Shown: piece by piece, positions 8,048 to 61,804 of the stretch
How the letters are laid out: every line of letters starts with the position of its first letter
How positions within the stretch are numbered: position 1 is the first letter of the stretch
From: Candidatus Kapaibacterium sp.
Lineage (GTDB): Bacteria; Bacteroidota; Ignavibacteria; Kapaibacteriales; Kapaibacteriaceae
Direction: 5' to 3'
NCBI GenBank assembly: GCA_022842685.1
Contig: JALHPC010000005.1
Coordinates: 20,548 to 84,547, forward strand
DNA length: 64,000 bases
Notes under the pieces: generated by a model
What the model saw: the letters and a program-made list of their open reading frames with translations, nothing else
Told to the model about the DNA's origin: nothing
Database searches by the model: none
Program-made: the position numbers and the translations under genes

Positions 8048-9037
8048 ATGAGCTACGTATCTCTTCCGGTTCTCGGCCAGTCGCACGCAGCCCCTTTCAA
8101 TTGGCAGACGTGGTATGAAGATGTGGGTGGGCGTACGATTTCAATACCTGAGGCCGATGCATGGATGAGGGCGATTGTCGAAGATCAAGTACCCAGGTTC
8201 GACGGCCGAGTAGCCCCCATGCAGCAGCACTTTGCTACGCCTCGTGAAGCAGCAGACTGGGTGAAGGCTTCGGCGAAATCCGACATCGTAGGTATATGCA
8301 GAGTTGAGGCCGCGGACGTCTACGCTGGGCGTTCTGTCGATGCTCAATATGCCATTGTGCTTGGTTCTCGGATGCGCTACGAGCACTTTGTTGAAGTACC
8401 TTCGGAACAGGCGGCCGTTGAGTGTTTGCGAGTGTATCATCAGCTAGGCGAGGAAGTCATTGCCCTTGCCAATGCCATTCGAGCCATTGGGCACGCCTGT
8501 ACGGTAGAGCATCCGCTGGGAGATTCTTCAGTGATGCACATTCCGCTAGCCCTCAAGGCGGGTTTTGGCGAACTGGGGCGCCACGGTAGTATTATCCATC
8601 CCACCTTTGGACCACTTTTCCGCATTGGCAGCGTGTTAACGAATCTCGAGATGGCGATTGATGATCCTGTTGACGCAGGCATCGGCGCCTTCTGTGATCG
8701 GTGCAAGGCATGCCGTCAGTTTTGTCCACCCGACGCAATTCCCGACAGTCGATTCGACGACGGCATCGTCGACCACACAGGTCGACCTCGATATGTTGTC
8801 GACACAGGCAAGTGTTTCCCCTATTTTGCCCGACAGAACTACTGTTCTGCTTGTTTGGCAGTGTGCGCGTGGGCTCGCAAGTCATGGGCAGTAGGCCTTG
8901 ACGGACAGCCACTACCCTTTCCTTCGGTACCATTTGGAACAACTCCTCCGCCGCTATCTCAACGCGTGGAACACCATTCGTACCCTCAGATTCGACGTTC
9001 CGAGGCGTCGCCTCATCACCGAAGCAAACAGAAGTAG
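8048..9037 (+). CDS. 4Fe-4S double-cluster protein, epoxyqueuosine reductase (QueG) / reductive-dehalogenase-like
   Basis: Two ferredoxin motifs CDRCKACRQFCP and C..CSACLAVC preceded by a GSxxxxxxGxxxRIGSVLT segment resembling QueG; sits next to a tRNA gene. Confidence 0.5.
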   Translation: MSYVSLPVLGQSHAAPFNWQTWYEDVGGRTISIPEADAWMRAIVEDQVPRFDGRVAPMQQHFATPREAADWVKASAKSDIVGICRVEAADVYAGRSVDAQYAIVLGSRMRYEHFVEVPSEQAAVECLRVYHQLGEEVIALANAIRAIGHACTVEHPLGDSSVMHIPLALKAGFGELGRHGSIIHPTFGPLFRIGSVLTNLEMAIDDPVDAGIGAFCDRCKACRQFCPPDAIPDSRFDDGIVDHTGRPRYVVDTGKCFPYFARQNYCSACLAVCAWARKSWAVGLDGQPLPFPSVPFGTTPPPLSQRVEHHSYPQIRRSEASPHHRSKQK

Positions 9038-19089: not shown

Positions 19090-21024
19090 GTGAGCACAGC
19101 CCATTCCTTGGTTGACCGGCTTATCGCTGCTGCTGAATCGCTGGACCTGCCAGCATCCGGCCCGGTATGTCTTGCCGTGAGTGGAGGCCTCGATTCTGTG
19201 GCCCTCCTCCACCTGTTCAAGCAATCGCCGTGGCAACATCGGTTACACGTTGTACATGTGCATCATGGCTTGCGTGGAGCCGATGCCGACGCTGACGCGA
19301 CCTTTGTAGAAGGCCTTGCTACTACGCTGGGTGTGCCGTCAACGATTCGCATTGTTAACACACTCGAACGAGCGCAGCGCGATAAGTTGGGCATCGAGGC
19401 GGCGGCACGCGCACTTCGGTACGAAGCACTTGCCGATGTAGCCCATGGTATCTCGAGTTTGGTAGTGGCAACAGCGCACACTGTTAACGATCAAGCCGAG
19501 ACGGTGCTGATGCGCATTCTGCGCGGCACCGGCGTTGATGGTCTGCAAGGTATCCGCCGACGTCGGCTCATTACAGACACCATAGCTTGCATCCGCCCCT
19601 TGCTCGACGTAACTCGCACCGAATTGCTCGACGCTGCTGTGGCATGTGGATGGTCTTGGCGCGAGGATTCGTCGAACGTCGACGTATACTTTCGTCGGAA
19701 TGCAATCCGACATCACGTACTTCCTTCGCTGGTTGAGTTCGGAGGTACAGCCACGATTCATCACTTGGCTCGCCTTGCCGATGCTGCAGCCGATGCTACC
19801 AACATCGTAACCGCCTTCATAGGCGACCACGGCGTTGACACCACATCGTTGGCCCTAGCAACAGAAGTGCTTACGATTCTTCCCGAGTACGCTCAGCGGA
19901 CCCTCATCCGCGCCTGGCTTCGCACGCATGTGCAGAGCAACGTCGACCACACTACGATTCAACGTGTTGCAGCCGCGCTACACAAACAGCCCGGTAGCCA
20001 AATCGATGTTGATGGGCAGTTTATCGTCGTTGTCGATCGTGCCTTCCTCACCCTTGTTCAGCGCAACGAAGCCACCGCCGATGTCGCCGCGTCCGACACT
20101 GTCATTCCCGACGTCGGCACGTATGAAACTCAAAACAGCTCGCTCGTTGTTCAACGCATTGTAGGTTACCCACAGCCTCCATACAACCCTGCTACGGCCT
20201 ACGTCGACGCCGCGAAGGTTGCCTTCCCGTTAACTTGGCGGCGCTGGAACGATGGCGACTCCATGCACGTGCTGAATGGTCCCGGTACGCAGCTCGTGAG
20301 CGACATCCTTACGAACGCCAAGGTACCACCCTCGATTCGACGTTCGGTGCGCGTTGTATCCGACGCCCACGGCATCATTTGGCTTTGCGGTTATCGCCTT
20401 GCTCATCGCGCTCGATGCACCGAGCACACCACTTCGTTCCTCACCCTTCAATGTTCGCCGTCTATGTCCTTACCAACAAATGTTGTACGCGTCTTTGATC
20501 GCACGTTCTCGCCCTTCATCTCGCGCGAAGAAATCGACGCAATGGTATTTTCGATTGCCCAGCGTCTAAACCATGACTATGCCAACCAAGAGATCACCTT
20601 TCTTGTCGTTCTGAATGGGGCAATGGTGTTCGCAAGCGACCTAGCACGACGCGTAACCGTGCCGTGCAGATTCGAGACCATACGTGCTTCGAGCTATGGC
20701 AATGGCATGACGACAAGCGGCACCGTACATGTCGACCAGCCGCTCCCCTCGCTTGCCGGCCGCAACGTCGTGATTGTTGAGGACATCGTAGATTCTGGTC
20801 TAACGATGGAGCGGCTCGTGCGCGATGTGCAAGCGAGCGGAGCACAGAGTGTTGCCATAGCGGCCTTGCTATCGAAGCCCGACGTACACCAGTATCGCGT
20901 CGATGTAACCTATGTGGGCCGAGAGATTGGTAACGACTTTGTGGTGGGCTACGGACTAGATTATGCTGGATATGGGCGCGAGCTCGATGCCATTTGGGTA
21001 GTGTGCAACACAGAGACAGCGTAA
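19090..21024 (+). CDS. tilS: Bifunctional tRNA(Ile)-lysidine synthetase / hypoxanthine-guanine phosphoribosyltransferase fusion
   Basis: N-terminal PP-loop LAVSGGLDSVAL (TilS); C-terminal ~180 aa HPRT with VVIVEDIVDSGLTM PRPP-binding motif; GTG start; followed by ftsH as in the conserved tilS-hpt-ftsH neighbourhood. Confidence 0.85.
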   Translation: MSTAHSLVDRLIAAAESLDLPASGPVCLAVSGGLDSVALLHLFKQSPWQHRLHVVHVHHGLRGADADADATFVEGLATTLGVPSTIRIVNTLERAQRDKLGIEAAARALRYEALADVAHGISSLVVATAHTVNDQAETVLMRILRGTGVDGLQGIRRRRLITDTIACIRPLLDVTRTELLDAAVACGWSWREDSSNVDVYFRRNAIRHHVLPSLVEFGGTATIHHLARLADAAADATNIVTAFIGDHGVDTTSLALATEVLTILPEYAQRTLIRAWLRTHVQSNVDHTTIQRVAAALHKQPGSQIDVDGQFIVVVDRAFLTLVQRNEATADVAASDTVIPDVGTYETQNSSLVVQRIVGYPQPPYNPATAYVDAAKVAFPLTWRRWNDGDSMHVLNGPGTQLVSDILTNAKVPPSIRRSVRVVSDAHGIIWLCGYRLAHRARCTEHTTSFLTLQCSPSMSLPTNVVRVFDRTFSPFISREEIDAMVFSIAQRLNHDYANQEITFLVVLNGAMVFASDLARRVTVPCRFETIRASSYGNGMTTSGTVHVDQPLPSLAGRNVVIVEDIVDSGLTMERLVRDVQASGAQSVAIAALLSKPDVHQYRVDVTYVGREIGNDFVVGYGLDYAGYGRELDAIWVVCNTETA

Positions 21025-23314: not shown

Positions 23315-23917
23315 TTACAGCGGGTCGACCTTGAACTTGAACGTGAGGGCAAACGTGCCGTTCATAGCAGGCGAGGTGACTGTTCCACCGCCAACGAGCG
23401 GGCCGTATTCGCTGCGGATGCAGAACTTAGGACGGCGCGAAATGAGTTTTGCGGCAGGGCTAATGGCAGCGTTATCGATGGCGATCTTATAGCCCTTGAG
23501 GTTTTCGGCCGACGTCACAAGGTCTTTAAGGGGAACATTGGTAGCCGTGCCAAGGAGATACTCTTTTGTGTCGCCGTATTCTGGGTCGAACGTCAGGACG
23601 TACCGTGCCGAGCTCAAGACGGCGTTATCGAGTGTGGTGCCGGGCGAGCTAAACTGCGGAGATGAAAGGTTGGCGATGCGCACCCATGCCTCTTGCACCT
23701 CGGCGCTCTTGATACGGCTCTTGTTGTCGTTAAAGTCCTTGTTGTCGCTCAAGTCGACGCAGTCATTACTTGTGCTTGGAGCAACATTCCCTGTCGACGA
23801 GAAGTTGATGTTTGATGTAATGGGAACATCGATGAGAGCGAGATTGGTAATCTCCTCGCACCCAAACAGGCCCACCAGCATGGCAAGCGAGAGGGCAATG
23901 GTAGAAAGGCGTTTCAT
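23315..23917 (-). CDS. Hypothetical lipoprotein
   Basis: MKRLSTIALSLAMLVGLFGC lipobox; no recognisable domain; immediately downstream of DprE2-like gene. Confidence 0.55.
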   Translation of the reverse strand: MKRLSTIALSLAMLVGLFGCEEITNLALIDVPITSNINFSSTGNVAPSTSNDCVDLSDNKDFNDNKSRIKSAEVQEAWVRIANLSSPQFSSPGTTLDNAVLSSARYVLTFDPEYGDTKEYLLGTATNVPLKDLVTSAENLKGYKIAIDNAAISPAAKLISRRPKFCIRSEYGPLVGGGTVTSPAMNGTFALTFKFKVDPL

Positions 23918-23990
23918 AGCGTGAACCTTGGTTGTGAATGTGTTGATGACAGATCCTAATCTAACACAATCAGGCACACATCTACAATGA

Positions 23991-24737
23991 CTAAAAACCG
24001 CTGCGACGAATCAGGCCTTCGGGCAGGTGTCGAACAACGAACATGATTGGACGCCAGAACCAAGGTACGTAGACAGAACTGCGTGAGCCGTCGAGAATTC
24101 GTTCGATGATTCTTGCTGCTGCTTCAACCGAGCTACTGATGGGCGCGATCTTGCGACCGGCTGTCATTGGTGTTCGAATCACGCCTGGCTTGATCGTAAC
24201 AACGTGGACGCCCGTTCCATGAAGGCGCATACGAAGGCCATCACAAAAGGCGGTAACCGCGGCTTTTGCGGCGCAGTAGGCAAAGAGTGTCTTGCGACCA
24301 CGGTCGCCCGCGACAGACGAGAGAACACCAATGGTCCCTCCACCGTTGGGCAACATGTGAACAGCAAGCGTGTGTACAACGCTAATCACTGACGTGGCAT
24401 TGAGGTGGAAGCCATGTACGACGGCTTCAGCATTGTGCATCAGTTCGTCGTGATCCTGCAGAACGCCTTGGGCTACAAGCGCCAATTCTATGCGGCCAAA
24501 ACGCCGAATCATATCGGCAATCATCACTTCGTGCTTCGTGCAGTCGGCAAGGTCAGCCACCACAACGTCAACGCTCAACGCGCCTCGTGCTTTCAGGTCG
24601 GCAGCAACTGCATCAAGCCGATCGGCCTGCCGACCTACGAGCACCATGGCCACACCGCGTTTGGCGTGGCAACGGGCGACATGTTCGGCAATCGAAGACG
24701 TAGCGGCAAAGTAAACGTAAGCACCAGATGTTGACAT
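23991..24737 (-). CDS. Short-chain dehydrogenase, DprE2-like (decaprenylphosphoryl-2-keto-ribose reductase homologue)
   Basis: SDR YxxxK (YCAAKAAV); C-terminal IKPGVIRTPMTA and ...FVVRHLPEGLIRR closely parallel M. tuberculosis DprE2 (IRPGQVRTRMSA ... MVLRHIPRSIFRK). Confidence 0.75.
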   Translation of the reverse strand: MSTSGAYVYFAATSSIAEHVARCHAKRGVAMVLVGRQADRLDAVAADLKARGALSVDVVVADLADCTKHEVMIADMIRRFGRIELALVAQGVLQDHDELMHNAEAVVHGFHLNATSVISVVHTLAVHMLPNGGGTIGVLSSVAGDRGRKTLFAYCAAKAAVTAFCDGLRMRLHGTGVHVVTIKPGVIRTPMTAGRKIAPISSSVEAAARIIERILDGSRSSVYVPWFWRPIMFVVRHLPEGLIRRSGF

Positions 24738-24884
24738 GCGGTCTGTAAATGGTTCGTATGAGCGTATTCGTGGCCGGAACACCGGGTAAACAACAAATAC
24801 AGCGTGGTGATGGTTTGGCCACAATTTACAGCAAACGCCAGTACATGCTGCGCATAGCTACGGCCTTGGGCTAGTCGCTACGCG

Positions 24885-25209
24885 CACTGCTCACCCCCCC
24901 GGCCCCCCTCTCAAGTTTGAGAGGGGGGTGCCGGTTTGTGTCTATCTTATCTATGCGAAGCATGTCGCTGGCCGCAGGCCGTAACTATGCGAAGCATGTC
25001 GCTGCGGCGAAGCCGCGTCGCTGTTGGCGAAGCCAACGTCGCTATGCCGAAGGCATGTACTATTGGCACTGCTCACCCCCCCGCCCCCTCTCGAGTTCGA
25101 GAGAGGGGGGTGCCGGTTCGTGTCTATCTTAGCTATGCGAAGCATGTCGCTGCGGCGAAGCCAACGTCACTGTTGGCGAAGCCAACGTCGCTATGCCGAA
25201 GGCATGTAC
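24885..25209. repeat. Tandem structured repeat (182-bp unit then a 143-bp unit lacking a 34-bp sub-repeat) rich in GCGAAGC mini-hairpins, each with a 12-bp GC palindrome
   Basis: Seen directly: CACTGCTCACCCCCCC...GGTGCCGGTT(T/C)GTGTCTATCTTA..CTATGCGAAGCATGTCGCTG...GCTATGCCGAAGGCATGTAC repeated twice; palindromes at 24903-24928 (perfect) and 25084-25110 (bulged). Confidence 0.85.
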
Positions 25210-25210
25210 C

Positions 25211-26524
25211 TTACGTCTCCGCCACCCTGCGCCACCACGACGACGACATCTTGGGGTCGATATGCTCACGGAACTGCTCCCACGCAGGGTACATCGCACG
25301 AAAGGTTGGACCCGATACCCGGCAGTCTTTTGCAACGTAAATGCGCCCCCCGGTTTCACGTACTAGTTCGTCGCATCGATCAAGAAGGGCGTACAGCGCT
25401 GCTCCCGTATTTGGAAAGTCGAGGGCCAAGGTGAGTCCAGGCATGGGGAACGATAGCAGTCCGCCAGAGTGGAGCCCACCAAAGGTCTTTAACACCGTTA
25501 AGAACGACGCCATGCGTTCCTTGCGAACCATTGTGAGTATGTCTTCGATGGGTTGACGTCCTGCAGCCGTTGGAATCACACACTGATACTGCACCATTCC
25601 CCGCCTGCCATATAGGCGGTTCCAGTTTTGTAGCATGTCCAAAGGATGAAAGAACGGCCGAAACGAAGCCTCGGCATGCCGTGCCGACCATCGATGTCGT
25701 GCATACCATAGCATGTTGAACATCGACACACTCCATCGCCCAACAAGGCCATTGGGTGCGTCGAAGGGAATGGGTAGGCCTGGCTTGGGCGTCGGCTCCG
25801 TGAGCGAATCGCTCGTCGTAGACCAGTTGCCGCTATGTACAACGCCTCGCCCTCGATGGTGTACCGTGTCAATCCACGCAACAGTGAATTCGTAGCCGGC
25901 GTCGTGCTCGCTTAGCACGTCTACTGCCGATCCAACGCGGTCGATTGGCGTGTTGGTGACAGACACCTTTGCCGAGGCTATGCGCACACATTGTACCTCG
26001 ACCCAAGCAATGATTCCAGTAAGCCCAAGCCCACCAATCGTTGCGCGGAAGAGCTCGCCAGATTCGTCCTGCGTAATAACGCCACGCCCTTCGCTGCGAA
26101 CGAGGCCAATGGCTCGCACATGACATCCAAACGTTCCATGCCGATGATGGTTCTTGCCATGAATGTCGTTGGCCACTGCCCCGCCAAGCGTCACAAACTG
26201 CGTCCCCGGCACAACGGGTATGAACCATCCATGTGGAACTATCAGACCATACAAATCACCTAACACAACGCCGGCGTCGGCTCGCAGAATGCCGGTCTCA
26301 TGATCAAACGAATGGACTCGGTCGAGGGCCGTCATGTCAACAAGTGTTCCGCCATTGTTGAGCGCCGAATCACCGTAACTACGCTGCAGGCCCACTGCCA
26401 GGAACGGTTGTTCCGCCGTAGAAACTCTATCAAGTTCGTCGGCCCATGCCGGTAGCCGTACCCCTGCAGGAGTTGAATCGGGAACCCTTCCCCACGTGTG
26501 ATACGTCCGCATCTCGCCACCCAT
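25211..26524 (-). CDS. FAD-linked oxidase, DprE1-like (decaprenylphosphoryl-ribose 2'-oxidase homologue)
   Basis: FAD_binding_4 N-terminus (GLQRSYGDSALNNGGTLVDM), C-terminus GGRIYVAKDCR...AMYP...DP parallels DprE1 GGRLYTAKDSR...AMYP...DP; start either ATG 26524 (TAATG overlap with upstream gene) or ATG 26512. Confidence 0.75.
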   Translation of the reverse strand: MGGEMRTYHTWGRVPDSTPAGVRLPAWADELDRVSTAEQPFLAVGLQRSYGDSALNNGGTLVDMTALDRVHSFDHETGILRADAGVVLGDLYGLIVPHGWFIPVVPGTQFVTLGGAVANDIHGKNHHRHGTFGCHVRAIGLVRSEGRGVITQDESGELFRATIGGLGLTGIIAWVEVQCVRIASAKVSVTNTPIDRVGSAVDVLSEHDAGYEFTVAWIDTVHHRGRGVVHSGNWSTTSDSLTEPTPKPGLPIPFDAPNGLVGRWSVSMFNMLWYARHRWSARHAEASFRPFFHPLDMLQNWNRLYGRRGMVQYQCVIPTAAGRQPIEDILTMVRKERMASFLTVLKTFGGLHSGGLLSFPMPGLTLALDFPNTGAALYALLDRCDELVRETGGRIYVAKDCRVSGPTFRAMYPAWEQFREHIDPKMSSSWWRRVAET

Positions 26525-27402
26525 TACGTTGCCAACGCAGCAACAATTCCTAGCAATAGTGCCACAACCCACCCACGTACGTCGCGCGCTACGTGAATGA
26601 TGGGATCGTCGTGCACAAGCCCCCGAAGGGCCTGCCGCCAAATGTCCACAATCCAGTACAACACAATTGGCACGCATAACCACAGCCACTGTGGCGTTCG
26701 ATACAAACGCTGGACGTCCTCGCCAGCTATGTACATCGTCAACACAAGCACCGACAACAATCCAATCGTAGGTCCAACAACCCTGATAAGCTCCACATCG
26801 GCACGCTGATAGCCACGCCGCATCACTCCATCTTCTTCAAGGGGCATCGAAAGCAACTCTGTGTAACGCTTCACGAACGCCAACGACGTTGAAACAAATA
26901 GCGTCATCATCAAGAGCCATGGCGATACAAGTATGTCGGTGGCTGCTCCGCCAGCCACAACGCGTATGGTATACAAACCGGCCAACACGAGAACGTCGAC
27001 CACGACAACCTTCTTGAGCACAAAACTATAGGTGGTAGTGGTTAACAGGTAGATAACCATCCATCCCACAAACTGCTCAGATACCGAGATCGCTAGGAAG
27101 GCCGCGGCAACAATGCACATTGCAGCCATGATGAGTGCAGTTCGAACACCTAGGCGACCAGATGCTATCGGACGATGACGCTTGCGATGATGTCGACGGT
27201 CGGCCTCAACGTCAACAATGTCGTTGATGATATAGACAGTCGACGCGCAAAGCGAAAACGCAAGAAAAGCAATGGAAATCTGTATCCACGCATCAACATC
27301 ATCGAGACGATGAGCAAGAACCATGGGTAGCACCAGTAGGATGTTCTTTACCCACTGATACAGGCGTAACTGCTTGGCAACGATAACAACGAAGGATGTC
27401 AT
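26524..27402 (-). CDS. UbiA-family prenyltransferase, decaprenyl-phosphate 5-phosphoribosyltransferase-like
   Basis: Polytopic membrane protein with NDIVDVEADRRH...RPIASG motif characteristic of the Rv3806c-type UbiA enzymes; ATGA overlap with upstream GH57 gene. Confidence 0.75.
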   Translation of the reverse strand: MTSFVVIVAKQLRLYQWVKNILLVLPMVLAHRLDDVDAWIQISIAFLAFSLCASTVYIINDIVDVEADRRHHRKRHRPIASGRLGVRTALIMAAMCIVAAAFLAISVSEQFVGWMVIYLLTTTTYSFVLKKVVVVDVLVLAGLYTIRVVAGGAATDILVSPWLLMMTLFVSTSLAFVKRYTELLSMPLEEDGVMRRGYQRADVELIRVVGPTIGLLSVLVLTMYIAGEDVQRLYRTPQWLWLCVPIVLYWIVDIWRQALRGLVHDDPIIHVARDVRGWVVALLLGIVAALAT

Positions 27403-29108
27403 ACTCTGGGGTTCACCGCGTGAATGCCTAGTACATCAAGAATTTCAGGGAACAATGCATCGCGCTGTTCAACACCAACAAGCACCGCTTCATCGGCATC
27501 CGTAAGTATGCCACCGCCAGCCAGCCGTTCGCATGCATCAGCAAGCGCCAGGGCGTCTTCGACGTGATTGTGGAAGCGCATACTTGCATACTCAGCGGCC
27601 GACCCGGTCGACACCAAGAAAGGCCAATCAGATGCTTGGGCAAGCACTACCTCTCGCATCATTGCTCCAAGTACACGGTGCTCATCAGCAGACCACTGCC
27701 GCTGCGAATGCTTCTCGAAGAGCATTCGCACTCGATGTTCCAACCGGTACTCACGCTCCCACATCCACTGTGTGGATGAGTGCATCCACACATCGTGGTT
27801 GCCATTGCGGCCCCACGATGACTCGGGCAACGCCACCACAGCAGTTGGTGGGTTCACGCTCATCGATGTTTCCAACGTCGACGCCTGTATTCCAGCTGCG
27901 GCAAGTCCTCGCAAGACGTGTTCTAGAAACACCGGACCCTCGAACCACCAATGTCCAAACAACTCAGTATCGAACGGCAAACACACCGTGGGCATACGCC
28001 CTGTTACACCACTGCGATGGTTGATAGTGGCCCCAAGAATCGACACAAAATGGGCTGCATGTTCTTGGGCCTTGCCTACAGCCCATTCGGGACGATAATA
28101 GTCTTTGTGGGCCATGTCGGCCTTCACATCTGTTACGCGCCAATAGCGCAGACTCGACTTGAAAAACTTCTTGTGAAAATCAAGGTAGTCGGGGTCGCCC
28201 GGATAGCCCGTTTGTCCACTCCACACTTGCAGGGCAATGCTCATCGATCGTGCAAACACACCCATCCCCTTTCTGTGCAAGGGGTCGCCGGCCCAAAACG
28301 CGTCAAGCGCCGAGCGCTCATCGAGCATCGATCGCGTTACGGCATCCGCTTCGTCGATCGCTAGGTATGTACCGTCGGGGCGTCGCATGGCAATGGGCGT
28401 CGACCCCGTTATCGATGCCTCGTCGACGACGGTATAGCGCATGCCGTAGTCGTTAAGAACGGTCTCAACGCCCAGCCGAGGTCGAGCCGTAGCGTACGGC
28501 GCTACGGGCAGCAGCGTCCGCCACGGATAGGCCGGACGATACGCACATTCTGGCATCCACATTCCCGAGGGTCGCCGGCCAAAGTGCCTGTGGTGAACGC
28601 GCTGCGCTAAGGCCACCTGTAGGCGCACACTGGCGTCTTCGGCCAGCAATGGCAGGTAACCATGGGTGGCCCCACAGGTAATAATCTCAATGGCACCGGC
28701 ATCGGCTAACTCGCGGAACGAGGCGATGATGTCGCTACCATGGTTGTTAGTAAACTCGTCAAGCTTTTGCAAGTACCAGCGTTCCCAATACTCGGCCAGC
28801 GCAAGCTGTTCTTGCGGTGCCCCTTCTTGGGATAAATGCTGGTGATCGGCGCGGGCTAACTGGGCATGCGACGTACAATAGTCGCTGAACAAGGCAGGAT
28901 ATGCTGGATGTGCAAGCTGTTCGGCAAGCACAGGCGACATCGTGAAGGTGATGCCGGGGGTAATGCCGTCGTGAACGAGACGACGGCACACGTCCAGCAG
29001 GGGCAGGTAGCACTCTGCGGTTGCCTCGCACACCCAATCGCTGCCATGCGGCCATGCTCCATGGTTCAAAACCCACGGCAGGTGTGTATGCAAGACGATG
29101 TTCACCAT
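27399..29108 (-). CDS. Glycoside hydrolase family 57 protein (1,4-alpha-glucan branching enzyme-like, DUF1957)
   Basis: N-terminal MVNIVLHTHLPWV GH57 signature right after the start, conserved GH57 core; start set at ATG 29108 by homology rather than ORF-track start 29165. Confidence 0.75.
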   Translation of the reverse strand: MVNIVLHTHLPWVLNHGAWPHGSDWVCEATAECYLPLLDVCRRLVHDGITPGITFTMSPVLAEQLAHPAYPALFSDYCTSHAQLARADHQHLSQEGAPQEQLALAEYWERWYLQKLDEFTNNHGSDIIASFRELADAGAIEIITCGATHGYLPLLAEDASVRLQVALAQRVHHRHFGRRPSGMWMPECAYRPAYPWRTLLPVAPYATARPRLGVETVLNDYGMRYTVVDEASITGSTPIAMRRPDGTYLAIDEADAVTRSMLDERSALDAFWAGDPLHRKGMGVFARSMSIALQVWSGQTGYPGDPDYLDFHKKFFKSSLRYWRVTDVKADMAHKDYYRPEWAVGKAQEHAAHFVSILGATINHRSGVTGRMPTVCLPFDTELFGHWWFEGPVFLEHVLRGLAAAGIQASTLETSMSVNPPTAVVALPESSWGRNGNHDVWMHSSTQWMWEREYRLEHRVRMLFEKHSQRQWSADEHRVLGAMMREVVLAQASDWPFLVSTGSAAEYASMRFHNHVEDALALADACERLAGGGILTDADEAVLVGVEQRDALFPEILDVLGIHAVNPRV

Positions 29109-29199: not shown

Positions 29200-29274
29200 G
29201 GGCGAGTGACGGGGCTCGAACCCGCGACAACCAGAGTCACAATCTGGGGCTCTACCTGCTGAGCTACACCCGCC
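29200..29274 (-). tRNA. tRNA-His (anticodon GTG) with encoded G-1
   Basis: Reverse complement GGCGGGTGTAGCTCAGCAGGTAGAGCCCCAGATTGTGACTCTGG...GGTTCGAGCCCCGTCACTCGCCC; anticodon loop TTGTGAC; G-1 pairs with C73. Confidence 0.85.
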
Positions 29275-29308: not shown

Positions 29309-30547
29309 TTACGGTTTTTTCTTCTTCGACGGTGTGGTTGTTGCTGGCTTTTTTGACGGCGAAGACTTCTGCGCTGGTGATGTTCCTAATGTTGGTTGCT
29401 CGGGAGCCGTTGGTAGCACGTCGGGGATGAGTGAATACGGACTGGCTTTGTCGGCAATCGAAATTCTACTCAAACCAGGAATCTGCGCTAACTCGGCTAC
29501 GGGCAGCGAGCGGATAGCATTGCCTCCAAGTTCGAGAATCGATAGGTTCTGGCAACGCCCTATCGATGTGGGTACGCTACTGAGCTTGTTAAATCGAGCC
29601 GATAGCACGTCCAGCATAACAAGGTCGCCGATCGCTTCAGGTAGGGTTGTAAGCCGGTTGGAATCAACCTCCAGACGTTTCAATTGCATGCCGAACAGGG
29701 TATCGGGTAAAGCAGCGAGATTGTTGCCATTGACCCTGAGAGTTTCTAAGGTTCTTAGTCGGCGAAGACGCACAGGCAAGGTCGAAAGAGCATTGTTGGA
29801 TATGTTCAAAGCAAGAAGATTCCCACATTCGAGAACAGATTCCGGTATACTCGATAGTGCGTTGTTGCTTACGTCCAGACGTTGCAAAGCCTGTAGCTGC
29901 CCAATCTGTTTGGGCAACGACGTAAGCCGAGCATTCGATACTTGGAGATCGGACAATAGGACGCAATCGCCAATGGATGCCGGTAGCGTTCGGACCTTAG
30001 TTCCAGACAAATCCAGCACTCGTAGACTGGAGAGTCCAGCCAGCGCATCTGAAGCGAGACTATCGACAGGGTTGTTTCGCACATCGAGTGTTGTAAGTGA
30101 CTTCAGTGGTGCGAGCGCCGGAATAAATCGAATCGTATTTCCGCGAAGCACAAGAACTTCCAACCACGGCATCGAAAGGAGTACCTTTGGAATCTGCTCA
30201 AGTTGGTTATTCGTAAGCGTGATGGATCGCAATTGTCGAAGATTGCTCAGCTCCGAGGGAAGATCTCGTAGCTCGTTAAATGCCACCACAAGTGTCTGAA
30301 GATTCACGCATTGCAACACCTCGCGGGGTAGTTCGGTTAGCCGCTGTCGCGACAGATCAAGTGCCGTCACAGCTTCGGGATTACGGGTAACGTCATCCAC
30401 CGATCGCGTTATCAACCCGCTCGGAAAGCTCGGTCGGTGCTGCAACTGCGGCATTCCATTGTCCTGCTGGCCACGTACCTGCGCCGTTAACATCACAAAC
30501 CCGGCCGCTACGGCCACGTACATCATCAGAGTTGTTGTGCATTTCAT
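29309..30547 (-). CDS. Secreted leucine-rich repeat protein with lysine-rich C-terminal tail
   Basis: Signal peptide ([26 protein letters not shown]); at least 14 tandem 23-aa LxxLxLxxNxLxxLPxxI repeats; tail [16 protein letters not shown]; no T9SS sorting domain. Confidence 0.8.
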
Positions 30548-30728
30548 GGTGGCAAAACTACGGCTCCTACCGCGAAAGGTCTGCGCATGTGCCTGTAATC
30601 GTACGCTGTTCGCCAACATTCCGTTTGGTGATACAGTGAATAACAGCGACATTTGTACTTCCCCGTGCGACGTAACGTCCTGTTACGTCCCTTTACACTT
30701 CCTCTCCCACTCTCTACTCTTCGTGCCC

Positions 30729-37507: not shown

Positions 37508-37604
37508 ATCGCAAAGATAGGGCTCTTGGTGCACGGCCAACCTGAGAACACCACAGGATGGAGTGGTTCGTCATAGCGCGTCGAAAACGACTATTGACAG
37601 CACC

Positions 37605-38906
37605 ATGAACCTGAACAAATTCACCATTCGAGCACAAGAGGCACTACAACGAGCACAGGAGGCAGCGTCTTCGGCTAGCCACCAGGCCATTGCACCCGAA
37701 CATCTAATGATGGCACTTCTACGAGAAGAATCGGGTCTTACCAAGGCCATTCTTGATCGCATCGGCGCTAACGTGGCGCAGATTCAGAGCACATTATCGA
37801 AGCAGCTAGAGCGCATGCCAACGGTGACGGGCGTTACCGGCACACACCTATCGAACGAGTTGCAGCGCGTTCTGCAGACAGCGGCCAACGAGGCAAAAGA
37901 CATGAAGGATAGCTTTGTGTCGGTTGAACACCTATTGCTGGCACTGGCAACTCAAGGCGGTACTGTTGCCGATGCCTTGCACAGTCAGGGCGTAACTCGC
38001 GCCACACTTACGAAGGCACTTGTGGATGTGCGGGGATCGCAAACGGTGACGGATCAGAATGCCGAGGACAAATATCAATCACTACAGAAGTACGCCCGCA
38101 ATCTGAACGAAGAAGCCACGAAGGGCAAGATCGATCCAGTGATCGGCCGCGAGGACGAGATTCGGCGGGTCCTGCAGGTTTTGTCGCGTCGCACGAAGAA
38201 CAATCCGGTGTTGATTGGCGAACCAGGAGTGGGCAAGACAGCCATTGTTGAAGGTATTGCCCAACGCATTGTGTCGCAAGACGTTCCAGAAACGCTCAAG
38301 ACTAAGACGATTTATTCGCTCGACATGGGAGCCCTGATTGCAGGAACGCAGTATCGCGGACAGTTTGAAGAACGCCTAAAAGCCGTGGTAAAAGAAGTAA
38401 CCGAAGCCAATGGCGAGATCATTCTGTTTATCGACGAGCTACACACATTGGTTGGAGCTGGCGCAACCCAGGGTGCCATGGATGCAGCCAATATTCTTAA
38501 GCCAGCGCTCGCACGTGGAGATCTGCGGGCCATCGGAGCAACAACGTTGGACGAGTACCGGCAACACATTGAAAAGGATCCGGCGCTAGAGCGCCGATTT
38601 CAAAAGGTCCTGGTTGCCGAGCCATCGGTCGACGACACGATTTCTATTCTGCGTGGACTAAAAGAACGCTACGAAGTGCATCACGGCGTACGTATTACCG
38701 ATGCAGCCATCGTTGCAGCTGCGCAACTGTCGAATCGGTACATTACCGACAGATTTTTGCCCGACAAGGCCATCGACCTTGTGGACGAAGCGGCCTCGAA
38801 GCTCCGCATCGAGATTGCCTCGATGCCCGAAGAAGTCGACACGCTGGAGCGTCGTATCAGGCAACTGGAAATCGAGCGCGAAGCACTGCTGCGAGAGCTG
38901 GCGTGA
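37605..38906 (+). pseudogene. clpB: clpB, 3'-truncated: N-domain plus NBD1 only, stop after first ~20 residues of the middle coiled-coil
   Basis: ClpB N-domain, Walker [14 protein letters not shown], Walker B ILFIDELH, then [24 protein letters not shown]-stop; no downstream frame continues as M-domain/NBD2. Confidence 0.7.
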
Positions 38907-44700: not shown

Positions 44701-44890
44701 CCGCCAGTGGCGACAAAACCCACAGACCCTGCCTCAGGCAGGGAGCGCCCCTGGCGGTGGGGTATGTGTTGGTAGCGCAATGTAAGACTGGTAAACTATT
44801 CATGGGTTAACGAAGGAGTATGGCAAGGTGCATAAATTACCCCACCCACCGCCGGAGGCGGTCCCGGCGAGACGCCGGGTCTGTGGGGTT
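44701..44890. other. GC-rich hairpin-dense intergenic block bounded by a 13-bp inverted repeat; candidate small structured RNA or MITE
   Basis: AACCCACAGACCC at 44717-44729 versus GGGTCTGTGGGGTT at 44878-44890; internal hairpins CCCTGCC-TCA-GGCAGGG, CCGCC-GGA-GGCGG, CCCGGCG-AGA-CGCCGGG. Confidence 0.35.
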
Positions 44891-44900
44891 GGTGGTAACT

Positions 44901-45030
44901 GGCCGAAGGCCGTAACTGTGCGAAGCACGTAGCTATGCGAAGCATGTCGCTGGCCGAAGGCCGTAACTGTGCGAAGCACGTAGCTATGCGAAGCACGTCG
45001 CCGTGCGCTTCGCTAACTTCGCGAATGACC
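44901..45030. repeat. Second locus of the GCGAAGC mini-hairpin repeat family (2 x 51-bp tandem plus degenerate tail)
   Basis: GGCCGAAGGCCGTAACTGTGCGAAGCACGTAGCTATGCGAAGCATGTCGCT twice; 44933-44978 matches 24951-24996 at 44 of 46 positions. Confidence 0.85.
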
Positions 45031-54359: not shown

Positions 54360-54539
54360 ATTCTAGCCCCCAACATGTGGATGATTTTGGTTCGATCTCG
54401 CGGCTTTCACGAGTGACCCAATATGCACCGATCAATGCAATCACACACATTGTCGTATGGACCCCACCCTGCAAATTCTCCGTAACTTTCTGTTTGGCAT
54501 TGTGTTATGCGAATCTTAGTACCACCTACCAGCAATCCC

Positions 54540-57413
54540 ATGTCCCATTCGCTTCGCCTTTTCACCACATTGATGTTAAACGCGGTCTTGTGTCTTTCGG
54601 TCTACGCCGAATCCACCGACCATGAAAGCCGGTCGTTTCCTCCTAGTGTTGCGATAGGTACTGCCCTGCCGAATCTAGGACTGCCATACGTAGGCCCAAC
54701 GAACACGGTCATCGTTGTCCGTTACCTAGGATTCTCTTGCACGCACTGCGTTCGTCAGCTTACTTACCTTAACTCGTACGCTCGCCGTCTGTCGGCAGCC
54801 GGCATTCGTGTTGTAGCATTCAGTTCCGACGATGACCGTACCAACATGCGCTTAGTGCAACGGATGGGCTATGACACGTCGGTCATCACGCTTGTATCAG
54901 ACCCGGACAATCGCCGTGCGCGAGCTCTTGACCTCCTTCGCACGGTCGACGGCGAGCAGCTCGACTTGCACGCTGCACTTGTGGTTCGAAATGGTATCCT
55001 AACGTTCGGCATCCTGTCTACACAGCCGTTCATGGATGTTGCCCGCCTGGTTCAGGCAGCCGTCGTTGCACCAACCACGCAACTGCGCAGCGGTAGTTCC
55101 CTTTCGCATTATGTGCAGGGCTCGGTGCGGCCGCGTGTAGTCGCAAGTGCTGCCGATGGAATCGTGAGCCCCGTCGACCTCAAGTTTAATCGGACCCTGC
55201 TTCATAGCAACGACCTATGGGTTGTAACGTCGCCAGATGTCGCCGCAGGCATGGCCATCCTCCACAATGCAGGCACATCCAGCCAGACGATAACGCTCAA
55301 GCGCGACTCGCGAGCCAGCCACTTTATGTATCGTACACAGGCCCTTGCCTTTGGATCGAATGGCACGTTCGCCACTGCCCAAAGTGGCTGGCCTGGTGGC
55401 GGATATCCCAACTACATGTTCATGGGCCCTACGCTTTGGTCATCCGATACTGCCATCTTCGCCTCGCTGTATCAAGATTCTCGAAATCGACTAGCATCAC
55501 ACCTCGACATGTTGCATCAGAGCCCGTGGTGTTTAGGGATTGCTCACGAACGCGACAACGTCTACTGGGTAACAGACGCACGATATAACACTGTTCACCG
55601 CTACGATTTTGCAGACCCCCATGAAGTAGGGGGCACCGACCACCGCGACGGCGTTATTCGTCGGTATACCGAGGCGACAATCACAACATCTGATCGTGAA
55701 CAACCAGCCCATATGGCTATCGACGATGCTACTGGTTGGCTTTACTACGTCGACCCAGGCGCAGGCCGTGTTCAGCGTCTTCGCATTTCGTCGGGCTCTG
55801 TTACCGGCGACTTAGAAATGCCCGAAGAAAGTGGCGAAAACCTAACCGAGTTTTCCGAAGTACGGGGCGCCACCATCGAGACGGCGATCGCCGGCCCTCT
55901 TGGTCAGCCAGTAGGACTTGACATCAGAAACGGAATGATGATTGTCGGCGACCGTGCAACAGGTCGCATTTCGATGTATCGACTGTCGGAAGACCAACCA
56001 GAACTCATTGGAACCGTGGCAACCGGAGCTGGCGAACTCCTTGGCATTACGATTGGTCCTGACGACCACATTTGGTGCGTCGATCGCGCTAATGCTTCAG
56101 TTATTCGTTTGGAAACGGCCGAAGCGGCATACGTCAACGTTACCTCAGACGTGGCGGTAGTTGATACAACAGAAGGGTCCGTCGTGTTTGTCGACCTTGT
56201 CAACGATGGCTCCGCCCCTGTAAGGTTTTCGGTTGAGGCAACCGTCGGCAATGGCTGGCAAGCGCTCATCGAACAGCCGGAAGTTACGGTCGCAGCGCAA
56301 AGTACCGAGCGTATTGGCGTGGTGGTGCGGCGCGACACCTCAGCAATGCCAGCGCAGATGCACATAGGTGCCACCGTTCGGCCGACTGGTGCGGGCGATG
56401 ACGTAGCCACACCGGCAATGGGAAGGGTCGTCCATCTTGTACCATCGAATCTTCGACGTGTACTCGTCCTTGATGGCACCACTGAAGGCTTCGACATCGA
56501 CGAAGCGCTTATGGCAACCAACCGTCAGGGCTATGTAGCGCTGTCCTCTCTCGTCTTCAATCGTGCCGCTGGCAGCTTAGGTAATCTTGAGACGTGCGTT
56601 TGGTTCAGCGGTAGCTTTGGTGACATTAGTGTAACCGACGAAGCCATCATCGCTGACTTACGCCGTAAGAACGTCGACATGCTCATGCTTGCCGATGACC
56701 CCTTCGCAATTCGTGCTGAAGGTGAAAACTCTGCGGCCTTGTTTCAGGTGTTTGGCGCCGTCTTTGGTGGGATTGATGCTCCGACGTCGGTAGATAATGG
56801 GCGACGTGTGTATGATGGCGTTGCCAACGACCCCGTTACCAATGGAATTACACTTGTTGATTGCCAGCTGCCACGATTGGACCATCACCGTGGTGAGTCG
56901 TTTGTGCCGAGTGTGTTTTTCCGCACCGCCGGAACGGGATCTAGCGCAATGCTGCGTAATCGTACAACACAGCGTGCCATGGCTATTCGGTATGTGAGCG
57001 GTGAATACCGAAGCATCGTCATGGGAATCAATCCTGCGCGTATGCTCGATGAACAGCAACGAACAACAATTCTCGACAAATCCATCGAGTGGTTGGAAGG
57101 CGCAGCGCCCAAACCAGTGGACCCAGATCCAACCTCTGTTACCGATCGCGATCAGCAGGCCTTGGCCTTGCACGTACTCGGCAACCCAGTGCGCACGTCG
57201 ACAACGCTGCGAATAACGACGACCGACGTAATGACTGCTGCGTCGGTTGCGCTGTACAGCGTTGGCGGGCAAGAGCTACGTCGGCTGTACGATGGTGTTC
57301 TCGACGGCGTTATGGAGTTTCCTGTGGATGCCACCGCGTTGGCATCTGGCACATACTTCATCATCGTTAGAACTCCTACGTCGATACACCACGTGGCAAT
57401 TATCAAGGACTAA
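54540..57413 (+). CDS. T9SS cargo protein: N-terminal thioredoxin-like (CxxC redoxin) domain, beta-propeller-like repeats, C-terminal Por sorting domain
   Basis: Signal peptide (MSHSLRLFTTLMLNAVLCLSVYA), FSCTHC redox motif in an AhpC/TlpA-like region, repeated YxxDxxxGRV propeller-like blades, C-terminus ...GTYFIIVRTPTSIHHVAIIKD. Confidence 0.65.
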   Translation: MSHSLRLFTTLMLNAVLCLSVYAESTDHESRSFPPSVAIGTALPNLGLPYVGPTNTVIVVRYLGFSCTHCVRQLTYLNSYARRLSAAGIRVVAFSSDDDRTNMRLVQRMGYDTSVITLVSDPDNRRARALDLLRTVDGEQLDLHAALVVRNGILTFGILSTQPFMDVARLVQAAVVAPTTQLRSGSSLSHYVQGSVRPRVVASAADGIVSPVDLKFNRTLLHSNDLWVVTSPDVAAGMAILHNAGTSSQTITLKRDSRASHFMYRTQALAFGSNGTFATAQSGWPGGGYPNYMFMGPTLWSSDTAIFASLYQDSRNRLASHLDMLHQSPWCLGIAHERDNVYWVTDARYNTVHRYDFADPHEVGGTDHRDGVIRRYTEATITTSDREQPAHMAIDDATGWLYYVDPGAGRVQRLRISSGSVTGDLEMPEESGENLTEFSEVRGATIETAIAGPLGQPVGLDIRNGMMIVGDRATGRISMYRLSEDQPELIGTVATGAGELLGITIGPDDHIWCVDRANASVIRLETAEAAYVNVTSDVAVVDTTEGSVVFVDLVNDGSAPVRFSVEATVGNGWQALIEQPEVTVAAQSTERIGVVVRRDTSAMPAQMHIGATVRPTGAGDDVATPAMGRVVHLVPSNLRRVLVLDGTTEGFDIDEALMATNRQGYVALSSLVFNRAAGSLGNLETCVWFSGSFGDISVTDEAIIADLRRKNVDMLMLADDPFAIRAEGENSAALFQVFGAVFGGIDAPTSVDNGRRVYDGVANDPVTNGITLVDCQLPRLDHHRGESFVPSVFFRTAGTGSSAMLRNRTTQRAMAIRYVSGEYRSIVMGINPARMLDEQQRTTILDKSIEWLEGAAPKPVDPDPTSVTDRDQQALALHVLGNPVRTSTTLRITTTDVMTAASVALYSVGGQELRRLYDGVLDGVMEFPVDATALASGTYFIIVRTPTSIHHVAIIKD

Positions 57414-61551: not shown

Positions 61552-61804
61552 CTTAGTGGGGTATATACGTGAAGGAAGATGCCGAAATTACAAAGAATCT
61601 CGTGACTGACCTACAATCTTGATCTCACAGGGGAACCCTTCGTACAGTGTGACGTGTTACGCGGCATTGTATACCATCAATCAGGCTCAGGTCGATTGTA
61701 CCGCGTAACCATCCTCGTCCTTGTGTGTCTCTGCACACCGGTTAACGCCACCATCATCTGCACATTCATTGTAACCGTCTCACTAACACATTTTGGAGTT
61801 ATTT

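Follow-up and report, generated by a model that had tools for sequence, protein, structure and literature searches.

We analyzed a 64,000-nt stretch of DNA from Candidatus Kapaibacterium sp. (contig JALHPC010000005.1, positions 20,548-84,547, assembly GCA_022842685.1), hereafter called the window; all positions below are those of the window. Three genes on its minus strand encode homologues of the core enzymes of the mycobacterial decaprenylphosphoryl-arabinose (DPA) pathway. These enzymes probably make a polyprenyl-phosphate-linked D-arabinofuranose (D-Araf) donor at the cytoplasmic face. The support consists of the specific homology of the three enzymes, conserved substrate-binding and catalytic residues, a tight operon, and the conservation of the cassette across phyla. 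The lipid and the sugar product are inferred, as are a phosphatase, a flippase, a transferase, and an acceptor. The three genes are listed below in the order of transcription.

26524-27402, minus strand: Rv3806c-like homologue of UbiA-superfamily polyprenyl-phosphate 5-phosphoribosyltransferases, short form lacking the HAD domain (292 aa; Pfam UbiA)
25211-26524, minus strand: DprE1-like oxidase dependent on flavin adenine dinucleotide (FAD) (437 aa; Pfam FAD_binding_4)
23991-24737, minus strand: DprE2-like short-chain dehydrogenase/reductase (SDR) (248 aa; Pfam adh_short)

The UbiA protein matched Pfam UbiA at 1.9e-24, and its sole matches in the PDB were 8j8j and 8j8k, both of Rv3806c (E 2.9e-31, 39% identity). 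NCBIfam models of the phosphoribosyltransferase type scored 140-353 bits, compared with at most 48 bits for other UbiA families. The best of them, PRK08238 ('UbiA family prenyltransferase'), scored 353 bits against a cutoff of 351, with an alignment confined to model positions 195-480. The protein thus aligned to the HAD-UbiA model without its N-terminal HAD phosphatase part, and the form found in this lineage has 290-324 aa. Ordinary UbiA prenyltransferases do not conserve the sites that bind phosphoribose (PMC10994848), which makes the mapping of these residues a discriminating test. The residues of Rv3806c that bind phosphoribosyl pyrophosphate (PRPP) and Mg (R22, K28, Y70, N73, D77, K87, R90, Q135, Y138, K143, and Y157; PMC10994848) were mapped onto the UbiA protein via a HMMER alignment. 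Ten of the 11 were identical (R22, K28, Y70, N73, D77, K87, R90, Y138, K143, and Y157). The protein is a homologue of Rv3806c-type polyprenyl-phosphate 5-phosphoribosyltransferases and is predicted to have that activity; the relationship is specific rather than fold-level.

The DprE1-like protein matched Mycobacterium smegmatis DprE1 in the PDB with 265 bits (E 7e-78, residues 40-425, 41% identity), and the next flavoenzyme family (8ot8) scored 36 bits. Similarly, the DprE1 model in NCBIfam scored 366 bits, followed by a model with 64 bits, while GlcD scored 25 bits. H132, K134, Q334, Q336, K367, Y415, and K418, which we take to be the active-site residues of DprE1, were all identical in the HMMER alignment. 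In a 26-sequence family alignment, the same residues, H122, K124, Q312, Q314, K346, Y396, and K399 in the numbering of the window protein, were invariant. The motifs GGRIYVAKDCR and FRAMYP aligned with GGRLYTAKDSR and FHAMYP of the M. smegmatis protein. Two positions were substituted, as Cys387 of DprE1 was aligned with Ala and N385 with Thr. Cys387 is the covalent target of benzothiazinones and a marker of drug-susceptible actinobacterial DprE1, dispensable for catalysis. As judged from its sequence, the protein is a specific DprE1 homologue and not a GlcD-type oxidase. It carries no signal peptide.

The SDR gene is the next gene downstream of the DprE1-like gene. Its product matched Mycobacterium tuberculosis DprE2 (21gq_C, an entry of the DprE1-DprE2 complex) with 107 bits over residues 26-245 at 34% identity; the next SDR in the PDB scored 59 bits, and the alignment with DprE2 extended to the C-terminus. 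The catalytic Ser and YxxxK were conserved (LSSVAG...FAYCAAKAA aligned with MSSAAG...FVYGSTKAG). At the C-terminus, IKPGVIRTPMTA aligned with IRPGQVRTRMSA and VVRHLPEGL with VLRHIPRSI of DprE2, and IMFVVRHLPEGLIRR aligned with VMMVLRHIPRSIFRK of DprE2. An initial annotation of this region, made from the nucleotide sequence, had quoted C-terminal motifs of the oxidase and the SDR as matches to DprE1 and DprE2, and they aligned as claimed. In NCBIfam, PRK07102 (214 bits, cutoff 267) ranked above the DprE2 model. The SDR is a specific homologue of DprE2 and not a generic SDR, as suggested by these alignments. Taken together, the DprE1 and DPPR-synthase models ranked first or second for their proteins, and the DprE2 model second.

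Close homologues of these proteins are publicly annotated in generic terms, such as 'FAD-binding oxidoreductase' and 'FAD/FMN-containing dehydrogenase'. Such annotations would fit three unrelated housekeeping enzymes (a quinone or haem prenyltransferase, a GlcD-type oxidase, and a generic SDR) that resemble the DPA enzymes in fold only. This explanation is hardly credible, because the models for haem o synthase, UbiA, MenA-type, and GGGP-type proteins scored 16-48 bits against 140-353 bits for the phosphoribosyltransferase type, GlcD scored 25 bits against 366 for DprE1, the PDB searches gave the same ranking, and the three genes co-occur in a fixed order across phyla. The initial annotation had identified the three proteins as homologues of Rv3806c, DprE1, and DprE2, and had named their placement in generic subfamilies as the result that would speak against this. 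The identification held, since the best PDB matches were mycobacterial by a wide margin and the residues were kept, and the NCBIfam and PDB scores contradicted a generic placement. Of the Pfam families that it had named for a profile search, UbiA, FAD_binding_4, and adh_short were each matched by the respective protein.

We propose the following route from these assignments. The UbiA protein would join PRPP and polyprenyl phosphate to form polyprenyl-P-ribose-5-P, and the 5'-phosphate would be removed by a phosphatase encoded elsewhere. The DprE1-like oxidase would then convert the ribose 2'-OH to a 2'-keto intermediate, and the DprE2-like SDR would reduce the keto group with the opposite stereochemistry, giving polyprenyl-P-beta-D-Araf. 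This donor would be flipped and then used by a GT-C glycosyltransferase, also encoded elsewhere, on an envelope glycan or protein. Donor synthesis is placed at the cytoplasmic face because the proteins all lack signal peptides. A lipid-linked D-Araf donor, as put forward in the initial annotation, is the best reading, because the three enzymes are specific homologues with the PRPP-binding and catalytic residues kept.

Several observations weigh against this reading. All three proteins scored below the NCBIfam equivalog cutoffs: the UbiA protein reached 161, 155, and 140 bits against DPPR-synthase cutoffs of 207, 234, and 474, the DprE1-like protein 366 bits against 500, and the SDR 161 bits against the DprE2 cutoff of 250. 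They are therefore sister-group homologues rather than orthologues by the curated standard. The UbiA protein has Thr in place of Rv3806c Gln135, a contact of ribose O3. It also lacks the fused HAD domain that most of its homologues carry, and no HAD or PAP2 5'-phosphatase was found among the window ORFs (open reading frames) scanned. Among the small window ORFs scanned with Pfam and NCBIfam, there was no small flippase (SMR, 'MATE', or GtrA), and the 64-kb window had no ORF of 380 aa or more with at least seven hydrophobic segments. Neither a flippase nor a GT-C-like polytopic protein was found within 10 kb of the cassette at five loci of relatives (L002, L004, L010, L086, and L087), and the loci of relatives, like the window, also had no HAD or PAP2 phosphatase. 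To our knowledge, no D-Araf-containing glycan has been reported from this lineage, and we know of no biochemical data for non-actinobacterial clade members outside Pseudomonas. In the literature library searched, no paper linked DprE1 to Bacteroidetes or Bacteroidota. The statement of the initial annotation that all three enzymes are needed to convert PRPP and polyprenyl phosphate into the donor omitted the 5'-phosphatase, which most non-actinobacterial homologues have as a fused HAD domain and which the UbiA protein of the window lacks.

A crude hydropathy screen also gave no unexplained small polytopic ORF adjoining the cluster. We considered a 12-transmembrane (TM) MatE gene near the cluster as a conserved flippase partner and rejected it. 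This gene (about 450 aa) lies between Dus and MreB in L004 (17963-19303), L086 (17340-18701), and L087 (17313-18695), but neither the window nor L002 has it there. What Kelly et al. call 'MATE' is an EmrE/ArnE-like protein with 4 TM segments (PMC11127046).

The same type of chemistry could yield another product. The cassette might make a lipid-linked pentofuranose other than D-Araf, with the 2-keto group retained or reduced back to ribose, or place phosphoribose on a non-polyprenyl lipid as a glycolipid. The scores below all three equivalog cutoffs, the Thr in place of Q135 in the ribose pocket, the Thr and Ala in place of N385 and C387 of DprE1, and the lack of a nearby transferase or flippase would agree with such a product, and different epimerases yield xylofuranose (Xylf) in related systems (PMC11127046). 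However, DprE1 and DprE2 form a specific 2'-epimerase couple, whereas the Xylf systems use a single GalE-like SDR (PMC11127046). The catalytic residues of the DprE1-like protein and the SDR are kept, as are residues binding polyprenyl phosphate and PRPP, such as K28. We consider another product rather unlikely and a D-Araf donor probable.

The initial annotation had further suggested cargo proteins of the type IX secretion system (T9SS), or the anionic lipopolysaccharide (A-LPS) that anchors them, as the acceptor. No GT-C, flippase, or T9SS gene was linked to the cluster. This suggestion is unsupported, because its only basis is that the host has a T9SS, and nothing was found to connect that system with the cluster. 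Within the window, the description of the host as a T9SS bacterium is backed by a single feature, a TIGR04183 sorting domain in the product of 61793-63520 (30.6 bits, cutoff 23). This plus-strand gene encodes four DUF4397 repeats and a T9SS type A C-terminal sorting domain, which is the sole direct evidence of a T9SS in the window; the Pfam Por_Secre_tail model scored 26.1 bits, just below its cutoff of 27.

We next describe the distribution of the cassette. A protein search gave at least 7,995 DprE1-like proteins at E <= 1e-10. Named organisms among the matches listed included Kapabacteria, Ignavibacteria, Rhodothermales, Bacteroidota, Burkholderiales, Nitrospinota, Methylocystis, and Competibacteraceae. 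For gene order, the best 80 of at least 600 genome-contig matches were used, in which the DprE1 identity was 40-48%. These 80 loci came from the FCB (Fibrobacteres-Chlorobi-Bacteroidetes) group, Acidobacteriota, Chloroflexota, Alpha-, Beta-, Gamma-, and Zetaproteobacteria, Bdellovibrionota, Verrucomicrobiota, Myxococcota, and Omnitrophota. Counts were made at the 55 loci whose flanks extended 3 kb or more in each direction. A DprE2-like SDR gene lay within 3 kb at 50 of them and a UbiA gene at 43, and the order UbiA-DprE1-SDR on one strand was found at 39. Most UbiA proteins of other phyla are about 480 aa long and carry a HAD phosphatase domain at the N-terminus.

In other phyla, the cassette was flanked by GtrA genes (eight loci) or LPG_synthase_TM flippase-like genes (nine loci). 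Large polytopic membrane proteins flanked it at 23 of 39 well-flanked loci, most of them outside any Pfam family. These neighbours fit a lipid-linked donor for periplasmic glycosylation. The polytopic neighbours were called GT-C candidates by size and hydrophobic-segment counts only, and Pfam did not identify the seven large ones inspected as GT-C: five matched no family, one matched DUF6020 below threshold, and one was a Na+/H+ antiporter. At one locus of a Bacteroidota metagenome-assembled genome (MAG), L005 (14692-17894), some 3-5 kb separate the UbiA-DprE1 pair from a polysaccharide cluster. This cluster encodes a Wzx-type flippase (Polysacc_synt) and a polytopic DUF6798 protein of 581 aa, the latter a possible GT-C-like partner.

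The genes had initially been called actinobacterial in type, with the implication that they are rare elsewhere. Neither point was upheld, given the number of DprE1-like proteins, the presence of the cassette in many phyla, and the published use of the pathway in Gram-negative bacteria (PMC11127046). Thousands of bacteria from many phyla carry this cassette, and it therefore does not count as a new system. It is a further example of a known and very widespread one, whose pathway, spread beyond Actinobacteria, and logic have already been published. The occurrence of DprE1-type genes in the FCB group appears undiscussed in the literature, though it is evident in databases.

We compared the cassette with known systems. 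In Azorhizobium caulinodans, noeC/H/O/P are responsible for the D-arabinosylation of Nod factors, a non-actinobacterial use of DPA-pathway homologues on a secreted glycoconjugate; that locus lies in a symbiosis island and has a known acceptor. The mycobacterial DPA pathway (Rv3806c, Rv3807c, DprE1 Rv3790, and DprE2 Rv3791) resembles the window cluster in its core enzymes (39%, 41%, and 34% identical for Rv3806c, DprE1, and DprE2), in the active-site and PRPP residues, in the neighbouring DprE1 and DprE2 genes, and in the absence of signal peptides. It differs in that the host here is a Gram-negative FCB bacterium, in which the lipid is presumably undecaprenyl rather than decaprenyl phosphate. 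The window cluster also has no PAP2 phosphatase (Rv3807c), Rv3789-like flippase, or Emb/Aft GT-C gene nearby, its DprE1-like protein has Ala in place of the benzothiazinone-target Cys387, and its scores fall below the equivalog cutoffs.

Three-component periplasmic pentofuranose glycosylation has been described as widespread, and DprE1/E2 homologues were present in the loci of all Araf-containing glycans examined (Kelly et al., PNAS 2024, PMC11127046). The D-Araf system of Pseudomonas aeruginosa group IV pilin, with TfpW, is the other characterised Gram-negative case (bioRxiv 10.1101/2020.04.19.049825). These systems share with the window a PRPP-dependent polyprenyl-phosphoribose synthase and DprE1/E2 homologues, which give an undecaprenyl-phosphate-linked Araf donor in Gram-negative bacteria. 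They encode a phosphatase, either as a fused HAD domain or as a separate gene, together with a small flippase and a GT-C (GT136 or TfpW) in an O-antigen or pilin locus, whereas the cassette of the window has no linked partners, a HAD-less UbiA protein, and a position among housekeeping genes behind a GH57 gene. The gene order is shared with the cassette of PRK08238-type HAD-UbiA, FAD oxidoreductase, and PRK07102-type SDR in Proteobacteria, Acidobacteriota, Chloroflexota, and others, whose DprE1 identity to the window is 40-48%; for the UbiA protein and SDR of the window, PRK08238 and PRK07102 gave the highest NCBIfam scores. Those cassettes mostly have a UbiA protein of about 480 aa with the HAD domain, often with GtrA, LPG_synthase_TM, or polytopic neighbours, while the lineage of the window has the form of 290-324 aa with GH57 upstream.

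The three genes are part of a longer gene run on the minus strand, from 29273 to 23315, in the order tRNA, GH57, UbiA, DprE1-like, intergenic repeat, SDR, and lipoprotein. The remaining features of this run are as follows.

29201-29273, minus strand: tRNA gene, the upstream boundary of the gene run (Rfam match, 63.2 bits)
27399-29108, minus strand: homologue of GH57 1,4-alpha-glucan branching enzymes (Pfam Glyco_hydro_57 and BE_C)
24840-25210, no strand assigned: structured intergenic repeat, an insertion between the DprE1-like and DprE2-like genes
23315-23917, minus strand: lineage-restricted lipoprotein (200 aa; no Pfam or NCBIfam match)

The stop codon of the GH57 gene and the start codon of the UbiA gene overlap by 4 nt (ATGA), and the two are translationally coupled. 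The UbiA stop codon and the DprE1-like start codon overlap by 1 nt. The DprE1-like and DprE2-like genes are separated by about 470 nt of intergenic DNA, and the gap between the SDR and lipoprotein genes is 73 nt. Start codons were assigned by comparison with relatives. The longest ORF of the DprE1-like gene spans 25211-26689, and its real start is the ATG at 26524, as called in a 98%-identical relative (L001). For the SDR, the longest ORF spans 23991-24824, and the real start is the ATG at 24737, which gives 248 aa as in L002-L004. The GH57 ORF reaches 29165; its likely start is Met20 at 29108, which agrees with the 569-aa calls in relatives and with the onset of the PDB alignment. A hairpin (29187-29158) lies between the tRNA and the GH57 start. 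Promoter and terminator scans gave results no better than shuffled sequence. The initial annotation had described four consecutive minus-strand genes in 23315-29108. All four were found at their places; the span also holds a fifth gene that it had not mentioned, GH57 (27399-29108), and the DprE1-like and DprE2-like genes are not contiguous, as the 470 nt with structured repeats intervene.

The window FtsH protein was 95% identical to that of L002, 91% to that of L004, and 76-77% to those of L010 (Ignavibacteria MAG) and L008 (Bacteroidota MAG). The order GH57, short UbiA, DprE1, and DprE2 was kept in eight metagenomic loci of relatives (L001-L004, L008, L010, L086, and L087), with the L001 contig ending before the SDR. 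FtsH followed on the opposite strand wherever the contigs extended that far, and the neighbourhood of Rho, FtsH, hypoxanthine phosphoribosyltransferase (Hpt), TilS, Dus, and MreBCD was syntenic in the same relatives. The assignment of the host to the FCB group in the initial annotation agrees with the 76-77% FtsH identity to Ignavibacteria and Bacteroidota MAGs having the same gene order. The GC content of the cluster was unremarkable, which together with the conserved synteny argues for vertical inheritance; horizontal transfer of the cassette was considered and rejected on the same GC content and the depth of the synteny. The cassette is native to this Ignavibacteria/Kapabacteria-like lineage, in which it lies in a conserved operon behind the GH57 gene.

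The GH57 protein matched Thermococcus TK1436 (3n8t) with 361 bits, and the catalytic motifs WMPECAY and FDTELFGHWW, containing the nucleophile Glu and the acid/base Asp, were kept. It scored below the NCBIfam equivalog cutoffs (418 against 920 bits) and has no signal peptide. From its sequence it looks like an ordinary cytoplasmic glycogen branching enzyme. The gene lies directly upstream of UbiA in all eight loci named above, in which GH57 identity falls as low as 52-53% and DprE1 identity as low as 45-47%, and it was found beside the cassette in none of about 75 loci of other lineages. A functional link between the GH57 gene and the arabinose-donor genes is possible.

If the GH57 protein is part of the system, the operon might build or remodel an alpha-glucan glycoconjugate that is then decorated with Araf, and the acceptor would be the alpha-glucan rather than lipopolysaccharide or T9SS cargo. 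The overlap of GH57 with the UbiA start codon, its retained position in the eight loci, and its intact catalytic motifs are in line with this idea. However, the entire neighbourhood is syntenic in those loci, so the adjacency may only mirror shared descent, and the lack of GH57 beside the cassette in other lineages and the apparently cytoplasmic character of the protein speak against such a role. We regard an alpha-glucan acceptor as very unlikely.

The lipoprotein has a signal peptide with an invariant Cys20 and no Pfam or NCBIfam match. Of 5.8 billion protein clusters, just five contained it, each time encoded 3' of the SDR gene, and the more distant syntenic loci L008 and L010 lack it. As it is confined to this narrow lineage and absent from those two loci, it is not a general component of the pathway, and its membership in the pathway is unproven. 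The AlphaFold model was a jelly-roll beta-sandwich (pLDDT 78). A fold search did not reveal a function; its matches, jelly-roll folds of viral capsids and TNF-like lectins, were all weak (TM score about 0.3).

The intergenic repeat (24840-25210) consists of a duplicated unit of about 150-180 nt made of GC mini-hairpins of about 17 nt. The unit ends in a 10-bp C/G-rich palindrome, CCCCCCTCTC..GAGAGGGGGG. The loops of the mini-hairpins read CGAAG on the plus strand and UUCG on the minus strand, as in the run CTATGCGAAGCATGTCG / CTGGCCGAAGGCCGTAA / CTGTGCGAAGCACGTAG. The predicted RNA fold had a z-score of -5.9, and no T-tract followed it. The same units occur again at 44882-45017. In relatives, the repeat is missing from L004, where 5 nt separate the SDR and DprE1-like genes, and is shorter in L002 (205 nt), and the L001 contig stops inside the repeat. 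At gathering thresholds, Rfam matched only tRNAs in the window and nothing in the repeat. It looks like a dispersed element of the REP/MITE (repetitive extragenic palindrome/miniature inverted-repeat transposable element) type.

The features that set this lineage apart, namely the loss of the HAD module, the GH57 linkage, the orphan lipoprotein, and partners unlinked from the cassette, amount to a modest lineage-specific twist. A bolder view is that this vertically inherited FCB operon (GH57, HAD-less UbiA, DprE1, DprE2, and, in an inner clade, the jelly-roll lipoprotein) specifies an undescribed D-Araf envelope glycoconjugate, possibly based on or coupled to alpha-glucan, with a distant transferase and flippase unlike every characterised system. 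We consider this quite unlikely.

Other genes of the window were noted in passing. A minus-strand gene (29309-30652), just upstream of the tRNA/GH57 operon and at the same position in L004, encodes a secreted-looking 447-aa leucine-rich-repeat protein with a Lys/Pro/Ser-rich tail; its best NCBIfam matches were the leucine-rich-repeat regions of the type III effectors XopAE and XopAC, well under cutoff. On the plus strand, a 644-aa ORF (19090-21024) fuses TilS, tRNA(Ile)-lysidine synthase, in frame with Hpt, which are two adjacent genes (about 450-460 aa and 190 aa) in L002, L004, L086, and L087. The plus-strand gene at 37563-38906 encodes a 447-aa Clp-type ATPase with Clp_N repeats and one AAA module with its lid, which corresponds approximately to the N-terminal half of ClpB/ClpC. 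About 280 nt separate it from the next gene. The ORF may have been truncated or frameshifted, or it may encode a true half-size protein. In a 968-aa protein (54507-57413, plus strand), only an N-terminal Redoxin/AhpC-TSA domain was recognisable. A 329-aa protein (8048-9037, plus strand) was similar to reductive dehalogenase and QueG, under both cutoffs.

D-Arabinofuranose is usually taken as a hallmark of mycobacterial walls. The cassette opens no new mechanism. On the residue-level evidence, a more specific functional annotation would be warranted for a very large protein family now labelled 'UbiA family prenyltransferase', 'FAD-binding oxidoreductase', and 'SDR family oxidoreductase'. If the proposed donor synthesis is correct, D-arabinofuranose would be a component of FCB envelope glycans, and this lineage would be one more among the Gram-negative bacteria that use PRPP-derived lipid-linked pentofuranose donors.

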